Assembly: GCA_016783545.1 (NCBI GenBank)
Contig: JADHWJ010000004.1
Span: forward strand, 27,513-91,512
Origin: Candidatus Aenigmatarchaeota archaeon
GTDB lineage: Archaea; Aenigmatarchaeota; Aenigmatarchaeia; QMZP01
Length of the DNA stretch: 64,000 nucleotides
Reading direction: 5' to 3'
Shown here: positions 6,420 to 57,022 of the stretch, piece after piece
How the letters are laid out: each line of letters starts with the position of its first letter
Numbering within the stretch: position 1 is the stretch's first letter
Notes under the pieces: generated by a model
Database searches by the model: none
Seen by the model: only the letters and a program-made list of their open reading frames with translations
Told to the model about the DNA's origin: nothing
Translations under genes and position numbers: made by a program

Positions 6420-6709
6420 GGGCTCGTAGCTCAGCTTGGTCTAGAGTGTCGAACGTCTCTAAGGTCACGTCCCAGTAGACGTGCATAGGTCTTATAAGGC
6501 CAACCAGGCTAACCTGGAAACAGACTAGCTTTGGCTAGTTGGTTATCTGGCGTAGAAGCCGAAGAAGCTTTAACCTTACGGGGTTTTAGTTGCGGAAGTC
6601 CTGGGTTCAAACTGGAACGCGGGGGCACATCCCCCTCATTCCTAAGGTTCCTCTGATCCCCCTGAAATTCAGGTAAGATTGGAAGAATATGAAAATCCCA
6701 GCGAGCCCA
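6420..6709 (+). tRNA. intron-containing tRNA, isotype unresolved (about 290-nt locus)
   Basis: 5' GGGCTCG-TA-GCTCAGCTTGGTCTAGAGT (acceptor plus D-arm). 3' CTGGG-TTCAAA[84-nt insert]T-CCCAG-CGAGCCC-A (T-arm plus acceptor). About 150 nt of structured sequence lies between the D-arm and the variable region. I could not fold an anticodon arm unambiguously. Confidence 0.6.
6612..6695 (+). other. T-loop intron of the unassigned tRNA (weaker member of the two-hairpin intron family)
   Basis: Interrupts TTCAAA|T. It contains hairpins GGGGG-CACAT-CCCCC and CCTGA-AAT-TCAGG in the same order as the introns at 56813-56892 and 50622-50719. Confidence 0.5.
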
Positions 6710-16207: not shown

Positions 16208-17125
16208 ATGTCTTTATGTATATTAGGTCACGAAAAAACAGAAACAAATCTTAGGCTCATGGAAGAAGCAAAAAAACATTTTGACAAGGTTTTTTATGTT
16301 CCTATCGATTCTATAGCCATAGGACTATCAGACAAATTCTCAATTTCGTATAGAACAACTGAACTATTAAAATTTGACGCTATACTACCAAGAATATCAA
16401 AAAAACTTAGTTCATATGGATATCAGCTTCTGTCACTTTTTCCAGAAGATAAATTCATGCCGATAAGGCCAATATCATTCTTACTTTCAACTGAAAGATT
16501 TTTCCTTCTTACAGTATTGAGAAAAAGAGGAATACCAACCATAAATCTGCATCTCACAAAGACACCAAAAGCAGCTAGTGCAGTACTTGAAAAATCAAAG
16601 TTTCCAGTTATACTAAGAACAGGTGAAAAAAAGACAGGAATTTTTGTTGAAAATAAACAAGAAGCAGTAAATGTGATAGATGCGCTTGGCACATTCAAGA
16701 AATCTATATTAATAGAAGAGGTTGTGAAAGACATGGTTTCTGTTTATGTCGCAGAGCCAGATATCATTGCAGCTGTTAAGAAGAAAACAAAACAAAAAGA
16801 CGTTCTCTTTGCAAAAGGGGATATTAAAAAAACCAAGTTAAGGGCAGAAGTAGAACAACTCGCACTCGATGCAGCAAAGGCTGTGGACACACAGATGGCG
16901 AGAATTGATATAAGCCTAAACGGTTCACCAAAAGTAATAGACATAAAACTCAACCCTGAATTGATAAAAGCATCAAAAGTTACTGGCGTTGACCTGCCAA
17001 AAAAAATCATAGAATCTGTTCATAATAATTACCAGGCTCATAAAGAAAAGCCAATGCTTGTAAAATTTTTTGAGGATGCAAAATCCGTTGTAAAAGATGT
17101 ATTAAAAAGCAAGCAGATGCTTTAA
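16208..17125 (+). CDS. RimK-like ATP-grasp protein (catalytic motifs appear degenerate)
   Basis: Collinear with RimK as I recall it (FDAILPRI..., GIPT, FPVILRTGEKKTGIFVENKQEAVNVIDAL, ARIDISL...VIDIKLNPE). Several ATP/Mg positions are substituted. Confidence 0.55.
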   Translation: MSLCILGHEKTETNLRLMEEAKKHFDKVFYVPIDSIAIGLSDKFSISYRTTELLKFDAILPRISKKLSSYGYQLLSLFPEDKFMPIRPISFLLSTERFFLLTVLRKRGIPTINLHLTKTPKAASAVLEKSKFPVILRTGEKKTGIFVENKQEAVNVIDALGTFKKSILIEEVVKDMVSVYVAEPDIIAAVKKKTKQKDVLFAKGDIKKTKLRAEVEQLALDAAKAVDTQMARIDISLNGSPKVIDIKLNPELIKASKVTGVDLPKKIIESVHNNYQAHKEKPMLVKFFEDAKSVVKDVLKSKQML

Positions 17126-17187
17126 ATACGTGCATGAGAAAGCTTATAAATACAACTTAGAGCTAATGTATAATACAAGATGGTTAT

Positions 17188-18021
17188 ATGAATATAAACA
17201 CAGTTCTGAGTAACATATGGATTTGGATAGCCACGTTTATGGAACAATTTATACCCAAATACATAATTCCTAATATCCAGCTTATAATACAAATAATTAT
17301 ACTCATTATTGTTGCCCTGATTGTCGGGAAAATAGGCAAAACAATAACCATAAAGTTACTGAACATAATAGGTCTCAAAAGAATAACAGGTAGAACCTGG
17401 GCTGAGAGCATGCTGAGAATCACAGGATACAGAGGAACTGTATTGGAGCTTATAGGAGACCTGATCAAATGGCTCATTTATATTCTCTTCCTTGCACTTA
17501 TGATACAGACTATAGGCTTCCCTGGAGTTGCTGAGATCTTCACCCAGGTGGCATCTGTTATGCCAAGAATTGTTGGGGCGATATTCATTGTTGTGATAGG
17601 GTTTATAATAGCAGATTTTTTCGGCAAAGTTTTCGAAGAAGCTGCAAGAAAGATCTTTAAAGAAGACCTTGCAGGAATATTCTCTGGAGCTCTTGCTAAA
17701 TACACTATCGGAATAATATCGATAATAATAGCTCTAAGTCTACTAGGATTAGACACAGTTAGCCTAAATATAATGTTTGCAATAATAATGGCAGTTGTTG
17801 TTGGCATACTTATTTTGGGATTGAAAGATACAATACCAAATTATTCATCAGGTATGCAGGTTAGGAGTTTAGTAAAAGTCGGAGATCATGTAAAAATAGG
17901 AGAATATTCAGGTATTGTTGAAAAGATAAACCCGACAGCAACTATACTAAGAAGCAATAAAAGATCAGTACTTATCCCAAATTCTTATTTCACAAAACTT
18001 CCTGTTGAAAAAATAAAGTGA
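17188..18021 (+). CDS. MscS-family mechanosensitive channel
   Basis: N-terminal TM helices followed by the beta-domain motif VKVGDHVKIGEYSGIVEKINPTATILRSNKRSVLIPNSYF. Confidence 0.6.
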   Translation: MNINTVLSNIWIWIATFMEQFIPKYIIPNIQLIIQIIILIIVALIVGKIGKTITIKLLNIIGLKRITGRTWAESMLRITGYRGTVLELIGDLIKWLIYILFLALMIQTIGFPGVAEIFTQVASVMPRIVGAIFIVVIGFIIADFFGKVFEEAARKIFKEDLAGIFSGALAKYTIGIISIIIALSLLGLDTVSLNIMFAIIMAVVVGILILGLKDTIPNYSSGMQVRSLVKVGDHVKIGEYSGIVEKINPTATILRSNKRSVLIPNSYFTKLPVEKIK

Positions 18022-18025
18022 TATC

Positions 18026-19054
18026 ATGTTGTTAGGTATAATAACAACAGAGGAGTTCATAAACGAGCCACACAACAAAGATATTATAAATTATGGCAAG
18101 AAAAAAAATGTTGATGTTTGTAGATTTCTTTCTAAAGACATAGACTGGGAAAATAAGATTGTTAATGGTTTTGATTCTAGTGGTAAGAGAAAGAAATTCA
18201 GATTCCCAGATGTTTTATACATACGAAACGGAAGGCCTCCAATAAGTATAGGTAAAAAGATAATGAAATCTTTTGTTGTCATGAATAGCCCTGATATGAT
18301 AGACATGGAACTCGATAAGTTAAGGACGTATGAGTTCATAAAGAAACAGGGAATTGGGAATAAAGGAAAGATTAGGCAACCAGAAACACTTCCATATACA
18401 AAAGAAAATACAAGAAAATTATTTGAGAAATATAAAACATTAATCTTCAAACCAATTCACGGTATGTGGGGGAGAGGTATAATCAGAGTCGAAAGGAATG
18501 CTTCTTATACACTACATTATGAAAAAACCGAATACGATATGAATGAAAAAGATCTTTTTGAAAAAATCAATGATATAATAAATAAATTAAATGATGAGTT
18601 TATTGTTCAGGAAGCTGTCAATGCAAAAGAATATGATGGTAGAGTTTTTGATATAAGATCATTCATGTTAAAGGATGGTAAAGGGGAGATAATTAAAGGA
18701 TTTACCATAATGAGAATTGGTGCAAAGAAAAAAGTAATATCCAATGTACATGGTGGCGGTGATGATGTTTTTGAATATAAGAAAATACTTGAACAGCTCT
18801 ACCCATCAAATCATGGGGAAATAATAAAAAATTTAGAGAGTGCTTTTTTCAAAGTAGCAAAAATAATGAACAAACTATCTGTAATGGGTGCTGATATAAT
18901 GCTTGATGTTGATGGGAATGCGTATCTCATAGAAGTAAATGGATGTGGCCCTGCTATTTACCTTTTTACCAATATACCAAAAAAAGTAAAGCAGAAATTG
19001 GCTGAACACATGGTTGATTATGCTATTCATTTGTATGGTCAGAAATATAACTAA
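18026..19054 (+). CDS. ATP-grasp ligase, YheC/YheD (TTL-like) type
   Basis: FKPIHGMWGRGI, FIVQEAV, FDIRSFMLKDGKGE, ISNVHGGGD and GADIMLDVDGNAYLIEVNGCGP, in canonical ATP-grasp order. Confidence 0.6.
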   Translation: MLLGIITTEEFINEPHNKDIINYGKKKNVDVCRFLSKDIDWENKIVNGFDSSGKRKKFRFPDVLYIRNGRPPISIGKKIMKSFVVMNSPDMIDMELDKLRTYEFIKKQGIGNKGKIRQPETLPYTKENTRKLFEKYKTLIFKPIHGMWGRGIIRVERNASYTLHYEKTEYDMNEKDLFEKINDIINKLNDEFIVQEAVNAKEYDGRVFDIRSFMLKDGKGEIIKGFTIMRIGAKKKVISNVHGGGDDVFEYKKILEQLYPSNHGEIIKNLESAFFKVAKIMNKLSVMGADIMLDVDGNAYLIEVNGCGPAIYLFTNIPKKVKQKLAEHMVDYAIHLYGQKYN

Positions 19055-19073
19055 TGCCAACTAATAATTACCC

Positions 19074-19949
19074 ATGAAAGTAAATGTAAAAAATCTTATT
19101 TATGTTGGCCTAGATTTCATATTTGAGAATGGAAACCCCTGGTTCATTGAAATGAACCCCCATGCTTATGGTGCATACAGCATAAAAACAATATCAGGTG
19201 AAGCAACACCACTTAAGAAACTTTCTAATTTTACAAAAAAATACAAGAATTTCTGCGCACTGGGTTGGGAGGAAGGTAAGAAAGAAAATACAAGATGGGC
19301 GGCAAATGAATTAAGGCATTACGGGACAAAAACTGAGTTATGCCTTGTCAAAGAGAATGTTAGGAGAAGAAAATATCTGAAAACGGTTGATGGTAAAGTT
19401 GTGGAGCCTGATTGTGTCTTCAAACATGGTCATATAGGTTTTCATCTTAGGGATTCAAAAGCAAAAATAATAAACCCGCATTATTTTTTCCATATCGCTG
19501 ATAAGTGGAATACCTATAAGATAATAGCCGATAAGGTTTTTAGGATGCCTAAGACATTTCTTGTAAAATCAAGAAAACAAGCAGATGATATAATCAGAAA
19601 AAATGGGGATGTATTCAAAAATGGATTTGTTATTAAACCAAGGAACAAATCCAAAGGTAGGGGATGCTTTGTTTTGGAAGTCGGTGACAAGATTCCGGCG
19701 ATAAGGGGCGAGAGAATACTCCAGCAGAGACTGATACCAGACCTTATCAAAGGAAAATATTATTGGGATGCGAGAGTTTTCGTTGTGAACGGAGAGATAG
19801 CAGGAAGTGAGATGAGAGTAACTGAAGATAAGATAACAAATGTGGCCCGTGGCGCGAAACCAACAATAGTTCCGAAAAAAATACTAGAAAAAGTATTAGG
19901 ACCATCTCTTAAAATAACAAAGGCACTTGACAGAGCAGAAAGGGAATAA
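19074..19949 (+). CDS. circularly permuted ATP-grasp ligase (paralog A)
   Basis: The N-terminus carries the normally C-terminal Mg-site strand VGLDFIFENGNPWFIEMNPHA. The protein then runs through IADKWNTYK, FVIKPRNKSKGRGCF, ILQQRLI, WDARVFVVNGE and ITNVARGA, and ends there. Confidence 0.55.
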   Translation: MKVNVKNLIYVGLDFIFENGNPWFIEMNPHAYGAYSIKTISGEATPLKKLSNFTKKYKNFCALGWEEGKKENTRWAANELRHYGTKTELCLVKENVRRRKYLKTVDGKVVEPDCVFKHGHIGFHLRDSKAKIINPHYFFHIADKWNTYKIIADKVFRMPKTFLVKSRKQADDIIRKNGDVFKNGFVIKPRNKSKGRGCFVLEVGDKIPAIRGERILQQRLIPDLIKGKYYWDARVFVVNGEIAGSEMRVTEDKITNVARGAKPTIVPKKILEKVLGPSLKITKALDRAERE

Positions 19950-19960
19950 ATTGATGACTT

Positions 19961-21034
19961 ATGTATCTAGGCGTATTAACCGAAAGAGAGGGCAAGGACA
20001 AATCTAATGATATAATTTTTTACTCCAGTAAATATTTTAAAGATATGGCAAGTATCTGCAAAGAAAAATGTATAGAGTTTTTTATTTTCTACAAGGATGA
20101 TGTTAATTGGAAGAAAAAAACAATTAAGGGATTTTTTCTAGAGAATGATGAATGGAAAAGAAAAAAAACAGTGTTTCCTGATGTTCTTTTTTTGTGGCCG
20201 GATATAGTTCATCCCACACGTCATAAAACAAAATATATGGAAATATCAAAAAAATTCAAAATACGTGTGAATTCATCGTCTGCGATAGAGGCCATGTGGG
20301 ATAAATTAGAAACATGTAATATTCTGAAAAGACATGGAATTGCAAGTGATGGTGCTATAAGACAGCCTGAGACCCTTTCTTATACAAAAGAAAATACAAG
20401 AAAACTTTTTAAAAAGCATAATTCGCTTTTCTTTAAGCCGAGATCTAGTACATGGGGATGGGGCATCTTTATGATTTCTAAAAATAGAGATGATTATACG
20501 ATAAACTATAAAGAAAATAAATGGAATGTTACGGCCAAGGAACTTTTCATTGAGATAGAAAAAATTATGAAAGATGCAAGTTATCTTGTACAAGAATCTG
20601 TAGATCTTGTAAAGTACAATGGAAGTGTTTTTGATGTAAGAACAGTTATACAAAAAAACAAAAAAGGTAAATGGGTTATTGCATTTATGGTAGTCAGAAA
20701 AGGTGTGAAAGGAAAGATTATATCAAATTTACATGGTGGTGGCAGAGATATAGCGGATATTGAAAAAGTGTTGAAAGAACTTTATGAAGACAGATATAAA
20801 AACATTCTTTCTAATATGAGGAAAGCTGCATTGAATTCAGCAAATGCATTTCCTAATGCTGGGATACTTGGTGTGGATATAATGACTGATGAGAAAGGAG
20901 CAGTCTATATAATAGAATTGAATGGAACACCAGGGATTTATGATTTTAGACATGTACCACTAAAACAAAAAAAAGATGTTTCAAGAAACATAGTTGAATA
21001 TGCGATCTATCTTCACAATAATAAAAATGTTTGA
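19961..21034 (+). CDS. ATP-grasp ligase, YheC/YheD (TTL-like) type, paralog of 18026-19054
   Basis: FKPRSSTWGWGI, YLVQESV, FDVRTVIQKNKKGKW, ISNLHGGGR and GVDIMTDEKGAVYIIELNGTPG. Shares IRQPETL.YTKENTRKLF with the paralog. Confidence 0.6.
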   Translation: MYLGVLTEREGKDKSNDIIFYSSKYFKDMASICKEKCIEFFIFYKDDVNWKKKTIKGFFLENDEWKRKKTVFPDVLFLWPDIVHPTRHKTKYMEISKKFKIRVNSSSAIEAMWDKLETCNILKRHGIASDGAIRQPETLSYTKENTRKLFKKHNSLFFKPRSSTWGWGIFMISKNRDDYTINYKENKWNVTAKELFIEIEKIMKDASYLVQESVDLVKYNGSVFDVRTVIQKNKKGKWVIAFMVVRKGVKGKIISNLHGGGRDIADIEKVLKELYEDRYKNILSNMRKAALNSANAFPNAGILGVDIMTDEKGAVYIIELNGTPGIYDFRHVPLKQKKDVSRNIVEYAIYLHNNKNV

Positions 21035-21093
21035 CAAAGTAGAAAAAATCATAGCATAAAACCATTTATTTAATCTCAAAACAATAATATTAT

Positions 21094-21984
21094 ATGAGCT
21101 TTGATTATAAAAACACCTACCTTCTCTTCGATTCAGGGAAACCAGGACCAATGTTTGTGGTACCGCATTCGGGCGTGGCTTTTCATAAACCAGGTGATTT
21201 CCAAGATGATGGCACGCATTTCATAGGTCAGAGGCTTGCGAATAGTAAAGGAAAGGCAATAATATCAATGATAACAAGGGAAAGGGATATTGGCCTAGAT
21301 TTCTACAGACTACCTCCGACAAAAAAACTCGCTCTGGAATATTATATTCATTTCAAGAACAATAGAAAGGATTTGACAAGGGATTTTAGGAGAAGATATT
21401 CTTGGGTTGCTGCTAACAGAAAAGAACATCGTAAAAAAGAAAAAATCTATAAAAATTTTTGGAAGGTTGTGCAGAATGCAAATAGTCCAACATATTTTAT
21501 ACATAGACAATTCTTTAATCCTATAAGGCATCCGAGCTTAATTGATGTTGTACCGTTCACATGTAATAGAAAAGTGCAATCCGCTGTCAGGAAAGTTAAT
21601 AAAAAATATGAAAAAATATTCAACTTCATACTACCTTTCTACAAGAAAGCATTTTTCTATAAGAGCAACTGCATACTTTTCAAAGATAAATTGGAAAATA
21701 ACTCTGGTATAGATCTATTCAGAAGTTCAGAACCAAGAATAATATGGAGAATGAATAGGTTCAGGGAGGCAATAAAGACTGATCCGTATATAAAGATTAC
21801 ATATAAAAAAAACTTCAAGGGGAAAAATACAAAGGGACTTGTTGAACACATATTACCAGAAAGGAATTATCCAATAATACAATTTGAGATATCAGAGTTC
21901 CTTACAAGAAGATTACCTGATCTGGCTGTACATCTGATAAAAGACATTATTAACGAAACAGAATGTTATGAAAAAAGAAAATAA
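21094..21984 (+). CDS. N-formylglutamate amidohydrolase (FGase)-like putative metallo-amidohydrolase, paralog 1
   Basis: FVVPHSGVAF...DDGTHFIG...ITRERDIGLDFYR resembles the FGase pattern PHxG...D.gt...R...D.NR. Shares YKNFWK and PSL.D.V.F with 22818-23741. Confidence 0.4.
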   Translation: MSFDYKNTYLLFDSGKPGPMFVVPHSGVAFHKPGDFQDDGTHFIGQRLANSKGKAIISMITRERDIGLDFYRLPPTKKLALEYYIHFKNNRKDLTRDFRRRYSWVAANRKEHRKKEKIYKNFWKVVQNANSPTYFIHRQFFNPIRHPSLIDVVPFTCNRKVQSAVRKVNKKYEKIFNFILPFYKKAFFYKSNCILFKDKLENNSGIDLFRSSEPRIIWRMNRFREAIKTDPYIKITYKKNFKGKNTKGLVEHILPERNYPIIQFEISEFLTRRLPDLAVHLIKDIINETECYEKRK

Positions 21985-22768
21985 TATGGGAGATCTAGTT
22001 AATTTCTTTAATCTTATTTCTAAAGGCATACTATGTGGTCTTGGCGCTGGTGGAGAATATAAGAAAAGGCCGATTGCTGTGAAAGCATTATTACATCCAG
22101 AAAAAGGCTATAAACATCTTATGGGAGAACTTATAGAATCTCTTAAAGAAGAAGATATAGCTGATGGTGATATTGTAATCTTTCCAGCAAAAATATTTGC
22201 AATAGCTCAGAAAAGACTTCTTCCAAGTGAATTTCTGGAAAAATATGGAAAGCCATCAAGACTTTTGAACAAAGAACTTGATATTCTGATTGGTGATGTG
22301 AAAAAAGAATTTAATATTGAAGTTGATAGACTTGATATACATGCTTCAGATAAAACGTATGTGAAAGAAGGATATAGTTCACTGCTTCCTAAAAATCCAA
22401 ATAAAATATCAGGTGATATCTCAAAATTGATTTTAAATAAATTTAAAAAGAACATAGATGTTGTTATAACAGATACACTGAATGTAAATGCAGTGACACA
22501 TTCTTTGCTTTCTGGGTTCCCTTCTTTAATTGCTATTCCAATAGGCGCCACAAATGGTTTGGTTCCGCATGATTTAATAAGAACATCAATTGCCGCAGAG
22601 ATTACAAGAAATAAAGAAAGAAATACTCCAATAGTTATTCTAAAAGCAGAAGAAGGCTTTGCTAGAGACGGCCCGAATATAGGAAAGTTTAGATACAACG
22701 GAAGAATTGATATGAAAAAGGAAGATGTTCCGGGATTTCTTAGAAATGTATGGAAAGATATTCAGTGA
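21968..22768 (+). CDS. CofE-like (F420-0:gamma-glutamyl ligase family-like) amide ligase
   Basis: DGDIVIFPAKIFAIAQKR and IDVVITDTLNV...AIPIGATNG resemble CofE motifs (GD.vv..sK..s.aeGr and vvitDT.gR...G..AiG). An alternative ATG at 21986 avoids the 17-nt overlap with the previous gene. Confidence 0.4.
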   Translation: MKKENNMGDLVNFFNLISKGILCGLGAGGEYKKRPIAVKALLHPEKGYKHLMGELIESLKEEDIADGDIVIFPAKIFAIAQKRLLPSEFLEKYGKPSRLLNKELDILIGDVKKEFNIEVDRLDIHASDKTYVKEGYSSLLPKNPNKISGDISKLILNKFKKNIDVVITDTLNVNAVTHSLLSGFPSLIAIPIGATNGLVPHDLIRTSIAAEITRNKERNTPIVILKAEEGFARDGPNIGKFRYNGRIDMKKEDVPGFLRNVWKDIQ

Positions 22769-22817
22769 ATAAATAATAAGTAAGAGCAAATGTAATTATA
22801 TTGTACATGGTGTTGAA

Positions 22818-23741
22818 ATGAAAGTTGAAATTAAAAATGGCTATATACATTTGAAAAACAAAGACGATCCTGTATATATAGTACTTCACACAGGACCCAA
22901 TTATAGCCTGCCAACAATAAGGGATACTAATTCAGATACTGTTGCAAGCCTTTGCTGGAAAAAGACAGGCGGAAGATTATTACTCTCTACAATGGCAAGA
23001 AATCCGTTGATAGGTGTTGATTTGAATAGGGAGGTACCTGATAAAAAAACCGCAATCAAAGAATGGAAAAACGCAGTAAATGAAAATGTTGTTGATTTCA
23101 AGAAGGTCTATGGGATGGTTGCGAAGAATGAAAAGGATTATGAAAAAAGAATAATGCTGTATAAGAATTTCTGGAAAATAGCAAAATCAACAGGAAAGCA
23201 TTTTATACTTTTGCATACACAGGATTTGAGAATAGGCAACTATCCAAGTCTTTTTGATATAGTAACTTTCGATGGAATAGGTATTAAGAAAGAAAGAACA
23301 ATGGAAATAATAAAAAAATTAAATAAAAAGTTCAGGAGAGAATTTTCCAATCTGGAAAATAATTTTAAAACGCGTTTGCTGGCATCTGCTAATTCAATAG
23401 AAACTGATAAAATGCTGAATAACACTGATGCATATGCGGAGTGGTTTGAAAGAGATACAGGTGTTATAAGAAAATATGGTGATAAAAATATTGTTAAGAG
23501 ATTGGAGAATAGCATAACAAAAGAGAATTTCATCAGGGCTGTTGAAAATGTTTTGAAAAAAGACATACCCCTGAAAATAACACTGGAACAGAATTTCTGG
23601 GGAGCAAAAGCATTTGCCCCTAAAAAGGAGCTCATAGGTAAAAACAGAAAAGTTGTTGAGATAGAAGTCAATGGATTCTTGAATAATTCATATCCAGAAC
23701 TGGTTGCAGACGTATTGGTTGAATTCGTTAAGATGCTATAA
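22818..23741 (+). CDS. FGase-like putative metallo-amidohydrolase, paralog 2
   Basis: YIVLHTGPNY...DTNSDTVA...ARNPLIGVDLNRE. Also YKNFWKIAK, FILLHTQ and PSLFDIVTF. Confidence 0.4.
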   Translation: MKVEIKNGYIHLKNKDDPVYIVLHTGPNYSLPTIRDTNSDTVASLCWKKTGGRLLLSTMARNPLIGVDLNREVPDKKTAIKEWKNAVNENVVDFKKVYGMVAKNEKDYEKRIMLYKNFWKIAKSTGKHFILLHTQDLRIGNYPSLFDIVTFDGIGIKKERTMEIIKKLNKKFRREFSNLENNFKTRLLASANSIETDKMLNNTDAYAEWFERDTGVIRKYGDKNIVKRLENSITKENFIRAVENVLKKDIPLKITLEQNFWGAKAFAPKKELIGKNRKVVEIEVNGFLNNSYPELVADVLVEFVKML

Positions 23742-23767
23742 TTTGGTTAATTCTAGAAGATAATTGT

Positions 23768-24655
23768 TTATAACATTTCACTAAAGTTCTCTATTACTTT
23801 TACGCATTTCTCTGCTCTTTTCTTGATTTTGTTTTCAATCTCTCCTGGAACTTCTTTAACAACACCACCAAGGCTTATGTTTGTCACAGGACTTTCAGAA
23901 ACCCTTAGCATAGAACCTATATATTTTCCGCCGACAACAAATGCCCTAAGGTCCCAATAATCGCCTTTCATTTTCTTTATGTTGACAATTTTTTGCAGAA
24001 GATATGGCTTCTTTATTTCAATGTTATCTATCTTGCTAATATCTTTGACTATGCGAATGCCACTGCCCTTTTCTCCAGTAGTTGGTTTAAGAACGAAACC
24101 CTTCTTGAACATCCTCTCATTTTCTTTCAGAGCCCTTTCCACATTACTCATATTCTTTACAAGAAAACTTGTGGGTGATCTTATGAATGCATTCCTTATC
24201 GCAAGGTAGCTTAGCCATTTATTTCTTGTAACCCTTATGACTTCGGGTGAGTTAATTTCAATTACATTCTCTGGGTTGTATTTGAACAAGGGTTTTCTTC
24301 TTAATAATGAATCAGCTTTTATTATGTTACCATCAATATCAACAAGTTTCGCCGAGTTTCTTTTGATTGATTTTTCATTCTCTTTGATGAGACAAATATG
24401 TACATCAAGTTTCTTTAGCCCATTTTTAATAAGGTTTATTGAAGTTTCGGTTTTCAGATAACGTTTTGGTGTTAGAAGTACAATATTTTCACATTTCCTT
24501 TTCTTTAGATATTTTTCAAGTGTTTTCACTGGTTTGATATTCTTGTATAATTCATGCCATATGAATATACCAGGAAATGAGTTGGCCTCTAAAAAGTATG
24601 GCCTCATTTCTTTATCGAATATAAAATCCAATCCAGCAAAGCTAAATTTATTCAT
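23768..24655 (-). CDS. circularly permuted ATP-grasp ligase (paralog B)
   Basis: N-terminal AGLDFIFDKEMRPYFLEANSFPG. It continues with TRNKWLSY, FVLKPTTGEKGSGI, YLLQKIV, WDLRAFVVGGK and VTNISLGG, and ends without a C-terminal Mg-site strand. Confidence 0.55.
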   Translation of the reverse strand: MNKFSFAGLDFIFDKEMRPYFLEANSFPGIFIWHELYKNIKPVKTLEKYLKKRKCENIVLLTPKRYLKTETSINLIKNGLKKLDVHICLIKENEKSIKRNSAKLVDIDGNIIKADSLLRRKPLFKYNPENVIEINSPEVIRVTRNKWLSYLAIRNAFIRSPTSFLVKNMSNVERALKENERMFKKGFVLKPTTGEKGSGIRIVKDISKIDNIEIKKPYLLQKIVNIKKMKGDYWDLRAFVVGGKYIGSMLRVSESPVTNISLGGVVKEVPGEIENKIKKRAEKCVKVIENFSEML

Positions 24656-35621: not shown

Positions 35622-35732
35622 TGGGCTCGGAGAGGTCTTCGGCTTTGCTGAAGGCAAGTGCCTTAGCACAACGATCGAACTCCCGGCCTCCACGTTATCA
35701 GCGTGGCGTTCTAACCACTGAACTACGAGCCC
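35622..35732 (-). tRNA. tRNA-Ile(GAU) with ~38-nt intron at the T-loop/T-stem junction
   Basis: GGGCTCG-TA-GTTC-AGTGGTTA-GAAC-G-CCACG-CTGATAA-CGTGG-AGGCC-GGGAG-TTCGATC-[GTTGTGC...GAAGAC]-CTCTC-CGAGCCC-A. Confidence 0.8.
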
Positions 35733-35768: not shown

Positions 35769-35873
35769 CGCCCCCGCTGGGATTTGAATTCCTGAATAAC
35801 TTGTTGACCAAATTATTTCCCAGGTCCCAGGCTCGAGAAGCCTGAATGCTTAACCAGACTACACCACGGGGGC
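35769..35873 (-). tRNA. tRNA-Glu(CUC) with 30-nt intron between T-stem and T-loop (53/54)
   Basis: GCCCCCG-TG-GTGT-AGTCTGGTTAA-GCAT-T-CAGGC-TTCTCGA-GCCTG-GGAC-CTGGG-[AAATAATTTGGTCAACAAGTTATTCAGGAA]-TTCAAAT-CCCAG-CGGGGGC-G. Confidence 0.8.
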
Positions 35874-42522: not shown

Positions 42523-44139
42523 ATGGAAGCCGCAAAAAAACAGAGATTATCGAAATTAGTTGAATATCTGGAAAACATTAAAGGTAGGCATACCGAACTG
42601 GTTACAGTCTATATACCAAGCGGATACAATATAAATAAAGTCGCTGAGCAATTGAGACAAGAACAGAGCACAGCACAAAACATAAAAAGTAAGGCCGTGA
42701 GAAAGAATGTTTTGTCTGCATTGGAAAAAATATTACAACATCTAAAACTCTACAGACAAACACCTGCAAACGGACTGGCTATATTCTGCGGTAATGTTTC
42801 TGAGAAAGACGGCACTGCTGATATTGAAATGTGGGCAATTGAGCCACCAGAATCAGTTAAACTAAGACTTTATAGATGCGATCAGAATTTCATTCTGGAC
42901 CATCTTAGAGATATGGTGAGAGAAAAAGAAATATACGGACTCGTTGTGATAGACAAATCAGATGCTGAAGTAGGGCTTCTGAAGGGAAAGAAAATAGAAC
43001 CCCTTAAACATTCTGAGAGTAATGTTCCTGGAAAAACAAAGGCCGGTGGGTGGTGTGTACATGAAAAAACCAATATAGAAACAAACAGCCAAACGATCGT
43101 TGATAAACTAAAAGAAGGTGATAAAATAAAATCATTTGATTTTGAAAATAAAAGAATAGTAAAATCCTTCTGCAAAAGAAAATTTTCAAGGAAATCTAAA
43201 GTAGCATATAAAATTGGAATAAGATATTCAAAGCTTATGGTTACAGGAGAACATTTATTTTTTCTATCATTTGACAAAAAAACAAAACCAGCGGATTGTT
43301 TGGAAATCGGAGATAATGTTTTATTCTATGATGGGTTCAAAGTTGAGAGGGAAAAAATCACTTCAATAAAAAAAATCAAAAATCCAAAAGGCCTTTTCTT
43401 TGATTTGGAAGTCCCAAATTACCAAAGTTTTATGGCAAATGGCTTCATTCTTCACAATTCACAGGCCAGATACCAACGAATCCGTGAGAACATGCTTAAT
43501 GATTTTCTGAGAAAAGTTGGTGAGATTGTAAATTCAAAGTTCAAAGAGATGAGAGACCTAAAAGGCATAATAATAGGAGGTCCTGCTGGAGTAAAAGAGC
43601 AGTTTGCTGAGGGAAAATATCTTGAGCCTCCAATCAAGAAAAAAATCATAGGTATTGTTGATACATCGTATACAGGCGAACCTGGGTTAAAAGAACTTAT
43701 TGAACGATCAGACGAGCTGATTTCAGAGGCATCTGCGATAAGAGAGAACAAAATACTAGAGAGGTTCTTTGGAGAGCTTGCAACTGATGGCCTGGCTGTT
43801 TATGGATTTGTAGAGACAATAGAAGCACTGAAAAATGGAAATGTTGAGATGCTTTTGCTCTCAGAGAGCTTTGACTGGGTAAAAGCAAAGCTTGAATGTC
43901 CTAAGTGTGGCGGAGGTGCAGAGGTTGAGGAAAAGGAAGAATTCCTTAAAGACGAGAGATGTTCTAATTGCAAGTCAGCAATGACGGTTGTTGCAAAAGC
44001 AGAGCTTATCGATGAAATGATAAAACTTGCTGAACAGATGGGTTCTGATGTTGAGATGATTTCTGATGAAAGTCCAAGAGGTATTCAGGTAAAAGAACTT
44101 GGTGGGATAGCTGGAATCTTAAGATATAAGACGGAGTAG
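42523..44139 (+). CDS. prf1: peptide chain release factor aRF1, interrupted by a mini-intein
   Basis: aRF1 collinearity (NIKS-region AQNIKSKAVRKN; GG...SQARYQRIRE; C-terminal domain). 538 aa minus the 135-aa intein gives 403 aa. Confidence 0.85.
   Translation: MEAAKKQRLSKLVEYLENIKGRHTELVTVYIPSGYNINKVAEQLRQEQSTAQNIKSKAVRKNVLSALEKILQHLKLYRQTPANGLAIFCGNVSEKDGTADIEMWAIEPPESVKLRLYRCDQNFILDHLRDMVREKEIYGLVVIDKSDAEVGLLKGKKIEPLKHSESNVPGKTKAGGWCVHEKTNIETNSQTIVDKLKEGDKIKSFDFENKRIVKSFCKRKFSRKSKVAYKIGIRYSKLMVTGEHLFFLSFDKKTKPADCLEIGDNVLFYDGFKVEREKITSIKKIKNPKGLFFDLEVPNYQSFMANGFILHNSQARYQRIRENMLNDFLRKVGEIVNSKFKEMRDLKGIIIGGPAGVKEQFAEGKYLEPPIKKKIIGIVDTSYTGEPGLKELIERSDELISEASAIRENKILERFFGELATDGLAVYGFVETIEALKNGNVEMLLLSESFDWVKAKLECPKCGGGAEVEEKEEFLKDERCSNCKSAMTVVAKAELIDEMIKLAEQMGSDVEMISDESPRGIQVKELGGIAGILRYKTE
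43054..43458 (+). mobile_element. mini-intein (135 aa, no endonuclease domain) in the aRF1 GGQ loop
   Basis: Starts with Cys (CVHEKT). Block B LMVTGEH (TxxH). Block F FFDLEVPNYQSFMANG. Block G FILHN followed by Ser+1. Confidence 0.7.
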
Positions 44140-50254: not shown

Positions 50255-50455
50255 CGCTCCCGCGGGGATTTGAACCCCGGTTTCCAGCAAGTATTCTCCG
50301 AGAAGAATACTCCTCTCCGGGTATTTTCGCTCACGGAACCCTTTTCGAGGCTTCCGCCATCGCCCAAAAGCGTTCACGGAAAACCCTTTCAAAGGTTCTC
50401 ACTTTTTTCGAAGCTCGAAAACCCGGCATACTTGACCAGGCTATACTACGGGAGC
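50255..50455 (-). tRNA. tRNA-Glu(UUC) with two introns (canonical 37/38, ~93 nt; variable region, ~33 nt)
   Basis: GCTCCCG-TA-GTAT-AGCCTGGTCAA-GTAT-G-CCGGG-TTTTCG[93 nt]A-CCCGG-AGA[hairpin GAGTATTCT..AGAATACT..]C-CGGGG-TTCAAAT-CCCCG-CGGGAGC-G. Confidence 0.7.
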
Positions 50456-50498: not shown

Positions 50499-50734
50499 TG
50501 GGCTCGGCCGGATTTATGGACCGACTGAACAAAGCCCAGTCTAGTTATCGAACCGGCGATCCCCGCCAAATTGATACAAAAACGATCTGTTATTGTAACG
50601 TCAAGGCGATGTCATAGCCAATGTCCGCGTTCTTTGATTACTAACCGCTTATACAACTCCTTTCATTATGAAAGGGGTGATAGTGCGGTAAGAGGGGGAA
50701 TCTGTCACCCTCTTGCGCTCTAGACCACGAGCCC
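50499..50734 (-). tRNA. tRNA-Val(GAC) with three introns (D-loop 98 nt, canonical 37/38 ~29 nt, T-loop ~34 nt)
   Basis: GGGCTCG-TG-GTCTAG[98 nt]TTGGCTATGAC-A-TCGCC-TTGACG[29 nt]T-GGCGG-GGATC-GCCGG-TTCGA[34 nt]AT-CCGGC-CGAGCCC-A. Confidence 0.7.
50622..50719 (-). other. D-loop intron of tRNA-Val carrying the conserved two-hairpin module
   Basis: AGCGC-AAGAGGG..CCCTCTT-ACCGCACTATCAC-CCTTTC-ATAAT-GAAAGG-AGTTGTATAAG. Aligns with the tRNA-Pro T-loop intron. Confidence 0.7.
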
Positions 50735-56798: not shown

Positions 56799-57015
56799 TG
56801 GGGCTACCCGGATTTTCACCTTTACATAATCTCCTTTGAAACTCAAAGGGATGATAGTACGGTAAGAAGGGAAATGTGTTCCCTTCTTGCGTTTTGAACC
56901 GGGGTCTGAAGCATTCCAGTTTCTCAGGCTTTTGGCCTGAAGACCTTTTGATGGAAGCGAAGCCCCAAAAGGTCTTCCCCATGCTCCAATGCTAAACCAA
57001 ACTACACTATAGCCC
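56799..57015 (-). tRNA. tRNA-Pro(GGG) (tentative) with two introns (anticodon loop ~63 nt, T-loop 80 nt)
   Basis: GGGGCTA-TA-GTGT-AGTTTGGTTTA-GCAT-T-GGAGC-ATGGGG[63 nt]T-GCTTC-AGAC-CCCGG-TTCAAA[80 nt]T-CCGGG-TAGCCCC-A. The alternative GGA reading was rejected because there is no long variable arm. Confidence 0.6.
56813..56892 (-). other. T-loop intron of tRNA-Pro carrying the conserved two-hairpin module
   Basis: ACGC-AAGAAGGGA-ACACATT-TCCCTTCTT-ACCGTACTATCAT-CCTTTGA-GTT-TCAAAGG-AGATTATGTAAAG. Confidence 0.7.
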
Positions 57016-57022
57016 CATAAAA

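Follow-up and report, generated by a model that had tools for sequence, protein, structure and literature searches.

A structured tRNA intron module shared by different tRNA genes of a Candidatus Aenigmarchaeota genome, probably a copied BHB intron family

Introduction

In Euryarchaeota the tRNA-Trp intron at position 37/38 houses a C/D box guide RNA, with C, D, C′ and D′ boxes, which 2′-O-methylates its own tRNA. There is as yet no explanation for the gain of introns at unusual positions in archaeal tRNA genes, and documented copying of introns comes from only one crenarchaeal order, the Thermoproteales, the study of which reportedly dealt with 16 intron groups. [quoted passage not shown] (2010, Mol Biol Evol 27:2233) and is covered in other papers (PMC4090602, PMC4033280, PMC3239211, PMC10714607), and the spread of introns between archaeal tRNAs is therefore not new. 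Disrupted multi-intron tRNAs and permissive splicing endonucleases are documented in DPANN archaea (PMC3239211, PMC5829648) and include endonucleases with a specificity loop (PMC5829648). The pre-tRNA-Pro(GGG) of ARMAN-2 (Micrarchaeota) contains T-loop introns at 53/54 and at the known hotspot 59/60, the latter with a relaxed motif that is cut in vitro by the organism's own endonuclease (PMC3239211).

Here we describe a structured module of about 70 nt that occurs in introns of different tRNAs of a DPANN archaeon. Like the euryarchaeal tRNA-Trp case, it is a structured, conserved RNA inside an archaeal tRNA intron with BHB-dependent release, which is predicted for the present introns; unlike that case, it has no C/D boxes and no Rfam match. 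As far as the accounts cited describe the Thermoproteales families, the module resembles them in its absence from orthologs, in the many multi-intron tRNAs of the genome, and in its BHB or relaxed BHB junctions. On the same accounts it differs from them in its host, a member of the DPANN (Aenigmarchaeota) with 34% G+C instead of a crenarchaeal hyperthermophile, in its extent, with a single family of three to four members within 64 kb only, and in its long (~70 nt) body with two hairpins and a three-way junction. With ARMAN-2 it shares a DPANN host and the favoured site 59/60; unlike here, the ARMAN-2 introns described are short (13–25 nt), and no paralogous intron family is reported for them (PMC3239211). 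The literature that was searched yielded no report of tRNA intron families, whether paralogous or transposed, from DPANN or Aenigmarchaeota; such reports may exist elsewhere.

Results

Interrupted tRNA genes in the window

The window, i.e. the whole 64-kb stretch of DNA that was analysed, has a G+C content of 34% and encodes archaeal housekeeping proteins (class I LysRS, Nop5, eIF5A, L19e, TFIIB, RFC, thermosome and eRF1). It belongs to a Candidatus Aenigmarchaeota MAG (DPANN), and its thermosome protein is identical to MBL7206340.1. Judged by ribosomal protein S2, its closest genomes, at 67–72% identity, are MAGs assigned to Aenigmatarchaeota. The best relatives in the searched collections are 63% identical in LysRS and 73% identical in Nop5, and none of them is close.

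Application of ARAGORN to the raw 64-kb window yields no tRNA at all, and Rfam recovers one tRNA at the gathering threshold and two at most. The tRNA genes were recovered by a scan for acceptor stems together with interrupted T-arms, followed by a search for BHB geometry, in-silico splicing and submission of the spliced genes to ARAGORN. In this way six tRNA genes are found, all of them interrupted, with 14 introns that total 709 nt. They comprise tRNA-Ile(UAU) (6420–6708, plus strand; four introns) and, on the minus strand, tRNA-Ile(GAU) (35623–35732; one intron), tRNA-Glu(CUC) (35769–35873; one intron), tRNA-Glu(UUC) (50256–50455; two introns, none in the T-loop), tRNA-Val(GAC) (50500–50734; four introns, in the D-loop, in the D-stem at 22/23, at 37/38 and in the T-loop) and tRNA-Pro(GGG) (56800–57016; two introns, of 63 nt at 37/38 and of 80 nt in the T-loop at 59/60). 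After removal of the introns ARAGORN accepts the genes as Pro(ggg), Val(gac), Ile(tat), Glu(ttc), Ile(gat) and Glu(ctc), and a canonical cloverleaf is restored in all six, as well as in a tRNA-Glu(ttc) from the metagenome contig discussed below. The Pro and Val identities given in the initial annotation are thereby borne out, and the tRNA at 6420–6708, which had been left unassigned, is tRNA-Ile(UAU). These results indicate that standard finders seriously underestimate the number of tRNAs in such MAGs.

Several further features of these genes were observed. In most archaea AUA is decoded by a tRNA with an agmatidine-modified CAU anticodon, and a UAU anticodon is known from a few lineages, e.g. 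Nanoarchaeum; a tRNA-Ile with this anticodon is present at 6420–6708 (plus strand), and the syntenic tRNA adjoining the thermosome gene in a relative (contig L013, 10210–10380) also reads as Ile(UAU). The 37/38 intron of tRNA-Glu(UUC) (50323–50415, minus strand; 93 nt) contains an internal direct repeat, AAAGGGUUUUCCGUGAACGC / AAAGGGUUCCGUGAGCGA. Both tRNA-Ile(UAU) and tRNA-Val(GAC) appear to carry four introns, as compared with the maximum of three per archaeal tRNA that is stated in the 2011 paper on ARMAN-2 (PMC3239211).

Homology of the tRNA-Pro and tRNA-Val introns

The reference copy of the module is the 59/60 intron in the T-loop of tRNA-Pro (56813..56892, minus strand; 80 nt), which was delimited by the BHB scan and scores 100 bits with the covariance model; its initially annotated ends are exact. 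The second copy is the D-loop intron of tRNA-Val, located just 5′ of G18G19 (50648..50719, minus strand; ~72 nt), which was delimited by alignment to the Pro copy and scores 96 bits. The span originally given for this intron, 50622–50719, is too long at the 3′ end, as it runs on through the D-loop exon CGGUUAG and through a second intron, 27 nt long; the module-bearing intron ends at about 50648. Its 5′ boundary lies at 50716 or 50719, a 3-nt ambiguity in which comparison with the D-loop of the closest relative favours 50719 (16–87 of the pre-tRNA).

The two introns can be aligned over ~70 nt with ~80% identity. The local alignment score of 58 compares with 13.8 ± 2.2 for dinucleotide-shuffled controls (z ~20), so that the proposed similarity stands far above the shuffled level. 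In an all-versus-all comparison of the 14 introns, Pro/Val is the only outlier among 91 pairs (z 21, next best 2.7), and no second intron family is present among the window introns. The pair has exact 9- and 7-mer runs in common, and the window contains the 15-mer CTTACCGYACTATCA at two positions only. The Pro and Val introns are homologous.

Common fold and compensatory changes

In the Pro copy, RNAfold predicts a hairpin P1 (56864..56888, minus strand), with a 9-bp stem AAGAAGGGA / UCCCUUCUU and a 7-nt loop, and a hairpin P2 (56829..56852, minus strand), with an inner stem CCUUUGA/UCAAAGG that is extended by AUC/GAU. Outside AUC/GAU, the 'linker' between the hairpins pairs with the 3′ tail. 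The initial annotation had proposed a two-hairpin fold common to Pro and Val, and both copies do fold in this manner, with folding z-scores of about −4.7 to −5; the hairpins are also retained in folds of the complete pre-tRNAs.

The stems of the two copies differ by seven substitutions in 32 positions. Six of these form three compensated double changes, of which P1 has two and P2 has one. By type, A-U becomes G-C in two cases and G-C becomes C-G in the third. The seventh substitution breaks a pair. In a simulation with random placement of the substitutions, a pattern compensated to this degree has P = 4e-4, which upholds the compensatory stem changes noted earlier. The overall divergence between Pro and Val is 22% in stems and unpaired parts alike, and the linker, with two changes in 13 positions (15%), is no better conserved than the rest. 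The special conservation that had been attributed to the linker is thus not observed, and the structural constraint on the module is visible only through compensation. The broader claim of selection on RNA structure keeps its support from the compensated changes, which is thin in so far as only two to four sequences are compared. In an alignment of the four copies discussed here 94% of the cells are paired, compared with 46–65% when the partners are slid; this figure leans towards structure because the alignment was fitted to the model.

Splice-site geometry

The BHB rule was calibrated on a canonical 37/38 intron and comprises an exon helix, a 4-bp helix and a 3-nt bulge that is cut after the second base. 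For the Pro 59/60 intron the scan gives the T-stem (A = 5 bp), a central helix with four of four pairs (B), bulges AA|A and AA|U, and an outer helix of 1 bp, and the motif is therefore relaxed. The central 4-bp helix is formed by the 3′-terminal UGAA of the intron (56815..56818, minus strand) and the T-loop residues U54–A57 (UUCA, 56895–56898). This UGAA falls outside the region that Pro and Val have in common. A UGAA or CGAA arrangement at the 3′ end recurs in the 59/60 introns of tRNA-Ile(UAU) and tRNA-Ile(GAU) and in that of the tRNA-Pro on contig L013; intron ends of the form '...UGAAAA' can thus be shared without homology, as a consequence of a recurring 59/60 splice design.

For the Val D-loop intron the scan gives A = 5, B = 3/4 and C = 3 (pre-tRNA 19–87), in competition with an alternative fold. 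The strand equivalent to UGAA is UAUA, which pairs with UAGA of the D-loop at three of four positions and lies inside the shared tail. The location of the Pro strand outside and of the Val strand inside the shared region suggests that the junction-proximal bases have apparently been refitted to a new exon context. In the minimum-energy folds of both copies the ACC of the linker pairs with GGU. This pairing is in competition with the central BHB helix and makes the junction geometry of Val uncertain; the outer helix is weak. The closing helix of the Pro and Val copies has decayed, which leaves a relaxed motif. Excision of the introns from the pre-tRNAs is predicted from this geometry. A standard 3-4-3 BHB that leaves a 7-nt T-loop does not fit the ~34-nt T-loop intron of tRNA-Val (50514–50547, minus strand).

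A copy on a metagenome contig

A second scan of the metagenome collection, with the 3′ strand of P1 plus the linker (CCCTYCTTACCGYACTATCA) as the query, matched exactly one contig, L023 (Hain-H51-01um), the name of which reads like that of a groundwater sample filtered at 0.1 µm. The contig encodes a tRNA-Glu(UUC) with a 158-nt intron at 37/38 and a 76-nt intron at 59/60, and the match lies in the latter, at the same T-loop site and with the same 5′ boundary as in Pro. The first ~49 nt of this intron together with 15 nt of the T-arm are 92% identical to the Pro sequence of the window (64 nt), and the copy scores 36.5 bits (E 2.5e-10) with covariance model R2. The rest of the contig shows no other resemblance to the window. 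The tRNA-Glu(UUC) of the window, unlike its counterpart on L023, has no T-loop intron, so that members of the family reside in different tRNAs in different genomes.

The contig copy also clarifies the anatomy of the module. Its 'linker' GUACUAUCAUC pairs with GAU-CGAUAGUAC to form a clean 11-bp stem; the linker is thus not single-stranded but belongs to a longer helix, of which it makes up one side. This copy lacks the inner P2 hairpin. The 5′ CGCA pairs with the 3′ UGCG, and the junction consists of the T-stem, UUCA/AGAA with three of four pairs, and the 4-bp outer helix CGCA/UGCG, i.e. a near-strict BHB. From this arrangement the module can be described as a three-way junction of a closing helix, P1 and P2. 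As a separate observation, the 158-nt 37/38 intron of the same tRNA (L023, 45–202, plus strand) is unusually long and contains several hairpins.

A probable diverged copy in tRNA-Ile(UAU)

The T-loop intron of tRNA-Ile(UAU), also at 59/60 (6612..6695, plus strand), had been put forward as a third copy. A covariance model trained on the Pro and Val copies alone matches 6615–6685 of the window, in the sense orientation and at full length, with 14 bits and an E-value of 0.044 for 128 kb. The intron sequence outside the training copies amounts to only ~560 nt, and the placement of this match is therefore unlikely to be due to chance. The intron has a GAACGC start, a CACAU loop in P1 and an AGAU...AAG end in common with the module. 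Nothing is seen by sequence alone: pairwise alignments to Pro and Val give z < 1.2, without significant similarity, and the intron also escapes an nhmmer profile, which relies on sequence only. The identical site and the weak covariance match stand, without sequence similarity beside them, and on the covariance model the intron is probably a diverged member of the family.

Four copies, one of them weak, are thus at hand, at 59/60 in the T-loop (Pro, Ile-UAU and Glu of L023) and in the D-loop 5′ of G18 (Val). The covariance-model search that had been suggested for further copies finds, outside the training copies, only the weak Ile(UAU) match in the window and the 36.5-bit match on L023. Chance or convergence between AT-rich hairpin-forming introns of no common origin could be invoked for the Ile(UAU) copy, with its want of similarity by sequence alone, and relatives also possess two-hairpin T-loop introns of unrelated sequence. 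Against such a resemblance stand the z of about 20 of the Pro/Val alignment with its exact 9- and 7-mer runs, its position as sole outlier of the 91 pairs, and a single match in the whole metagenome collection, which shares both the T-loop site and the 5′ boundary. As an account of the family as a whole, chance has next to no probability; for Pro, Val and L023 it is already refuted, and Ile(UAU) is the only copy for which it is possible.

Orthologous loci in relatives

Loci of relatives that encode homologs of LysRS, Nop5 and the thermosome, ~140 kb in total, were compared with the window and searched with models R1 and R2. The closest relative (contig L017), with a Nop5 that is 73% identical and with the same 900-aa gene downstream, has a syntenic tRNA-Val(GAC) upstream of Nop5 which is intronless. 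The contig starts inside this tRNA; when the five missing 5′ bases are supplied, ARAGORN calls Val(gac), and the tRNA aligns with the spliced window tRNA. The tRNA-Pro(GGG) that adjoins LysRS is likewise intronless in a second relative (L015), and in a third (L013) it contains a single 59/60 intron of unrelated-looking sequence. The 59/60 introns of L013, in tRNA-Pro and tRNA-Ile(UAU), are not detectably related to the module. Their treatment as a family of their own was rejected (z 1.5).

These intronless or differing relatives point to a fast turnover of introns in the group. On the sequences compared, the D-loop copy of Val is most simply regarded as a gain; a loss is possible, given the distance of the nearest relative (Nop5 73% identical). 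The initial proposal of homologous introns at non-homologous positions, with the spread that this implies, is strengthened by the intronless Val and Pro genes of the relatives and by the Glu copy of L023.

No copy of the module is found in the ~140 kb of relatives' loci with either model, nor in the only three, distant, relatives found among GTDB genomes by ribosomal protein S2, and the module is undetectable in relatives at ~60% protein identity. An exact 22-mer spanning linker and P2 has no match in the genome and metagenome contig collections, which lack the source genome, and a 19-mer of the module has none in viral contigs. Extensions beyond the window that were obtained through its edge proteins (1.5 kb and 5.2 kb) contain no tRNA copy of the module.

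Two additional features were observed in the Nop5 region. Between tRNA-Val(GAC) and Nop5 on L017 (72–230, plus strand) lies what, by reading, looks like a tRNA-Leu(UAG) with introns of its own, in the slot that in the window is occupied by tRNA-Glu(UUC). In a more distant relative (L018, 4493–5554, minus strand) a gene for a free-standing LAGLIDADG_3 protein adjoins Nop5.

Features absent from the module and its surroundings

No Rfam family matches the module, at gathering or E-value thresholds, in scans of the whole window and of small regions; even when regions a few hundred bases long are scanned at high sensitivity nothing reaches threshold, and the weak matches differ between copies. On reading of the alignments, no C/D (RUGAUGA/CUGA) or H/ACA boxes are conserved between the copies. 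Searches of both strands with the covariance models reveal no copy outside tRNA introns in the 64-kb window or in the ~140 kb of related loci. Pfam scans of 40 proteins of the 64-kb window contain no splicing endonuclease (EndA), RtcB ligase, reverse transcriptase, transposase or integrase. With no Rfam family, no boxes, no copies outside tRNAs and no mobility gene, the function beyond splicing that had been envisaged, as a protein-binding site, a stable sRNA or a mobility element, finds no support.

These results bear on the possibility that splicing sets free from the intron an RNA with a function in its own right, be it a small RNA in stable or circular form, a guide RNA or a decoy for proteins, and that this function maintains the structure in place of splicing. 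The compensated changes that preserve the structure and the 92% identity of ~49 nt across two genomes and two host tRNAs speak for such an RNA, and archaeal BHB introns are reportedly released as circles (PMC3326292). The Rfam and box results argue against it, as do the absence of the inner P2 hairpin from L023, a linker without complementary target in the window, and the failure to detect the module in relatives at ~60% protein identity; we regard a functional RNA as unlikely.

The near-identical copies at unrelated sites and in another genome could also derive from a MITE-like DNA element that lands in tRNA genes, with the hairpins as palindromes for a transposase or recombinase, and by reading the copies are flanked by short repeats (AGC...AAGC in Val, AAA...AAAA in Pro). 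Such repeats are, however, expected from BHB symmetry anyway. Moreover, all four copies lie in the sense orientation, inside tRNA genes and at junctions able to form a splice motif, without intergenic or coding copies in the ~64 kb and the ~140 kb of related loci; terminal inverted repeats are lacking, both palindromes being internal, and no transposase or integrase gene is nearby. A DNA element of this type is quite unlikely.

Discussion

The module is most probably the body of a paralogous family of archaeal BHB tRNA introns that was copied between tRNA genes in an Aenigmarchaeota-like DPANN lineage and the structure of which is kept for splicing; we estimate the probability of this reading at roughly 0.75. 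The core of ~70 nt would fold by itself into two adjacent hairpins, P1 of 9 bp and P2 with a 7-bp inner stem and an extension formed by the linker and the 3′ tail. In the best-preserved copy the CGCA/UGCG closing helix would join the hairpins in a three-way junction that brings the intron ends together; combined with adjacent bases of the exons, these ends may build the splice motif. The motif predicted for tRNA-Pro consists of the T-stem, a 4-bp helix of T-loop UUCA with UGAA at the 3′ end of the intron, and two 3-nt bulges with the cut sites. The splicing endonuclease of the host would cut the bulges and an RNA ligase would rejoin the exons, so that the T-loop UUCAAAU is restored.

We infer that splicing is the reason for the conservation of the structure. 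A mis-folded intron would spoil the splicing of a single-copy essential tRNA, and selection could thus act on the fold even if the excised RNA has no role. The D-loop copy of Val would be a gain specific to this lineage, derived from a T-loop intron at 59/60, of which only the junction-proximal 3′ bases were refitted. The copying itself presumably proceeded by DNA-level recombination or by reverse splicing, and the module provides a concrete substrate with which to address this question.

A more far-reaching proposal is that the module is an autonomous mobile RNA. Its body would be recognized by the endonuclease/ligase pair or by a dedicated factor, and the excised, probably circular intron would insert by reverse splicing at BHB-like sites in other tRNAs and become fixed by reverse transcription or recombination. 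DPANN archaea would then harbour a selfish, viroid-like RNA capable also of passing from one genome to another, a movement for which the basis is the 92% identity over ~49 nt between two otherwise unrelated contigs with different host tRNAs. We consider this improbable.

With a copied intron family as the preferred explanation, the copying process described for the Thermoproteales would now extend to the phylogenetically and ecologically remote DPANN, which suggests that introns spread generally in archaea whose splicing endonucleases are permissive. The case offers a well-defined, foldable unit of ~70 nt and a polarised event, given by an intronless ortholog versus a D-loop gain. The finding is unsurprising and is of interest mainly to specialists in tRNA gene evolution.

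Two observations outside the tRNA genes may be added. A cluster at 16208–24655 of the window, unrelated to the introns, contains five ATP-grasp genes (RimK / YheC-D / TTL-like) and a gene resembling F420-0:gamma-glutamyl-ligase. The eRF1 gene (42523–44139, plus strand) exceeds the usual length by ~120 aa, and its residues 277–312 match Pfam Intein_splicing with 41.7 bits (cut-off 35.8), which suggests that the extra length corresponds to a mini-intein.
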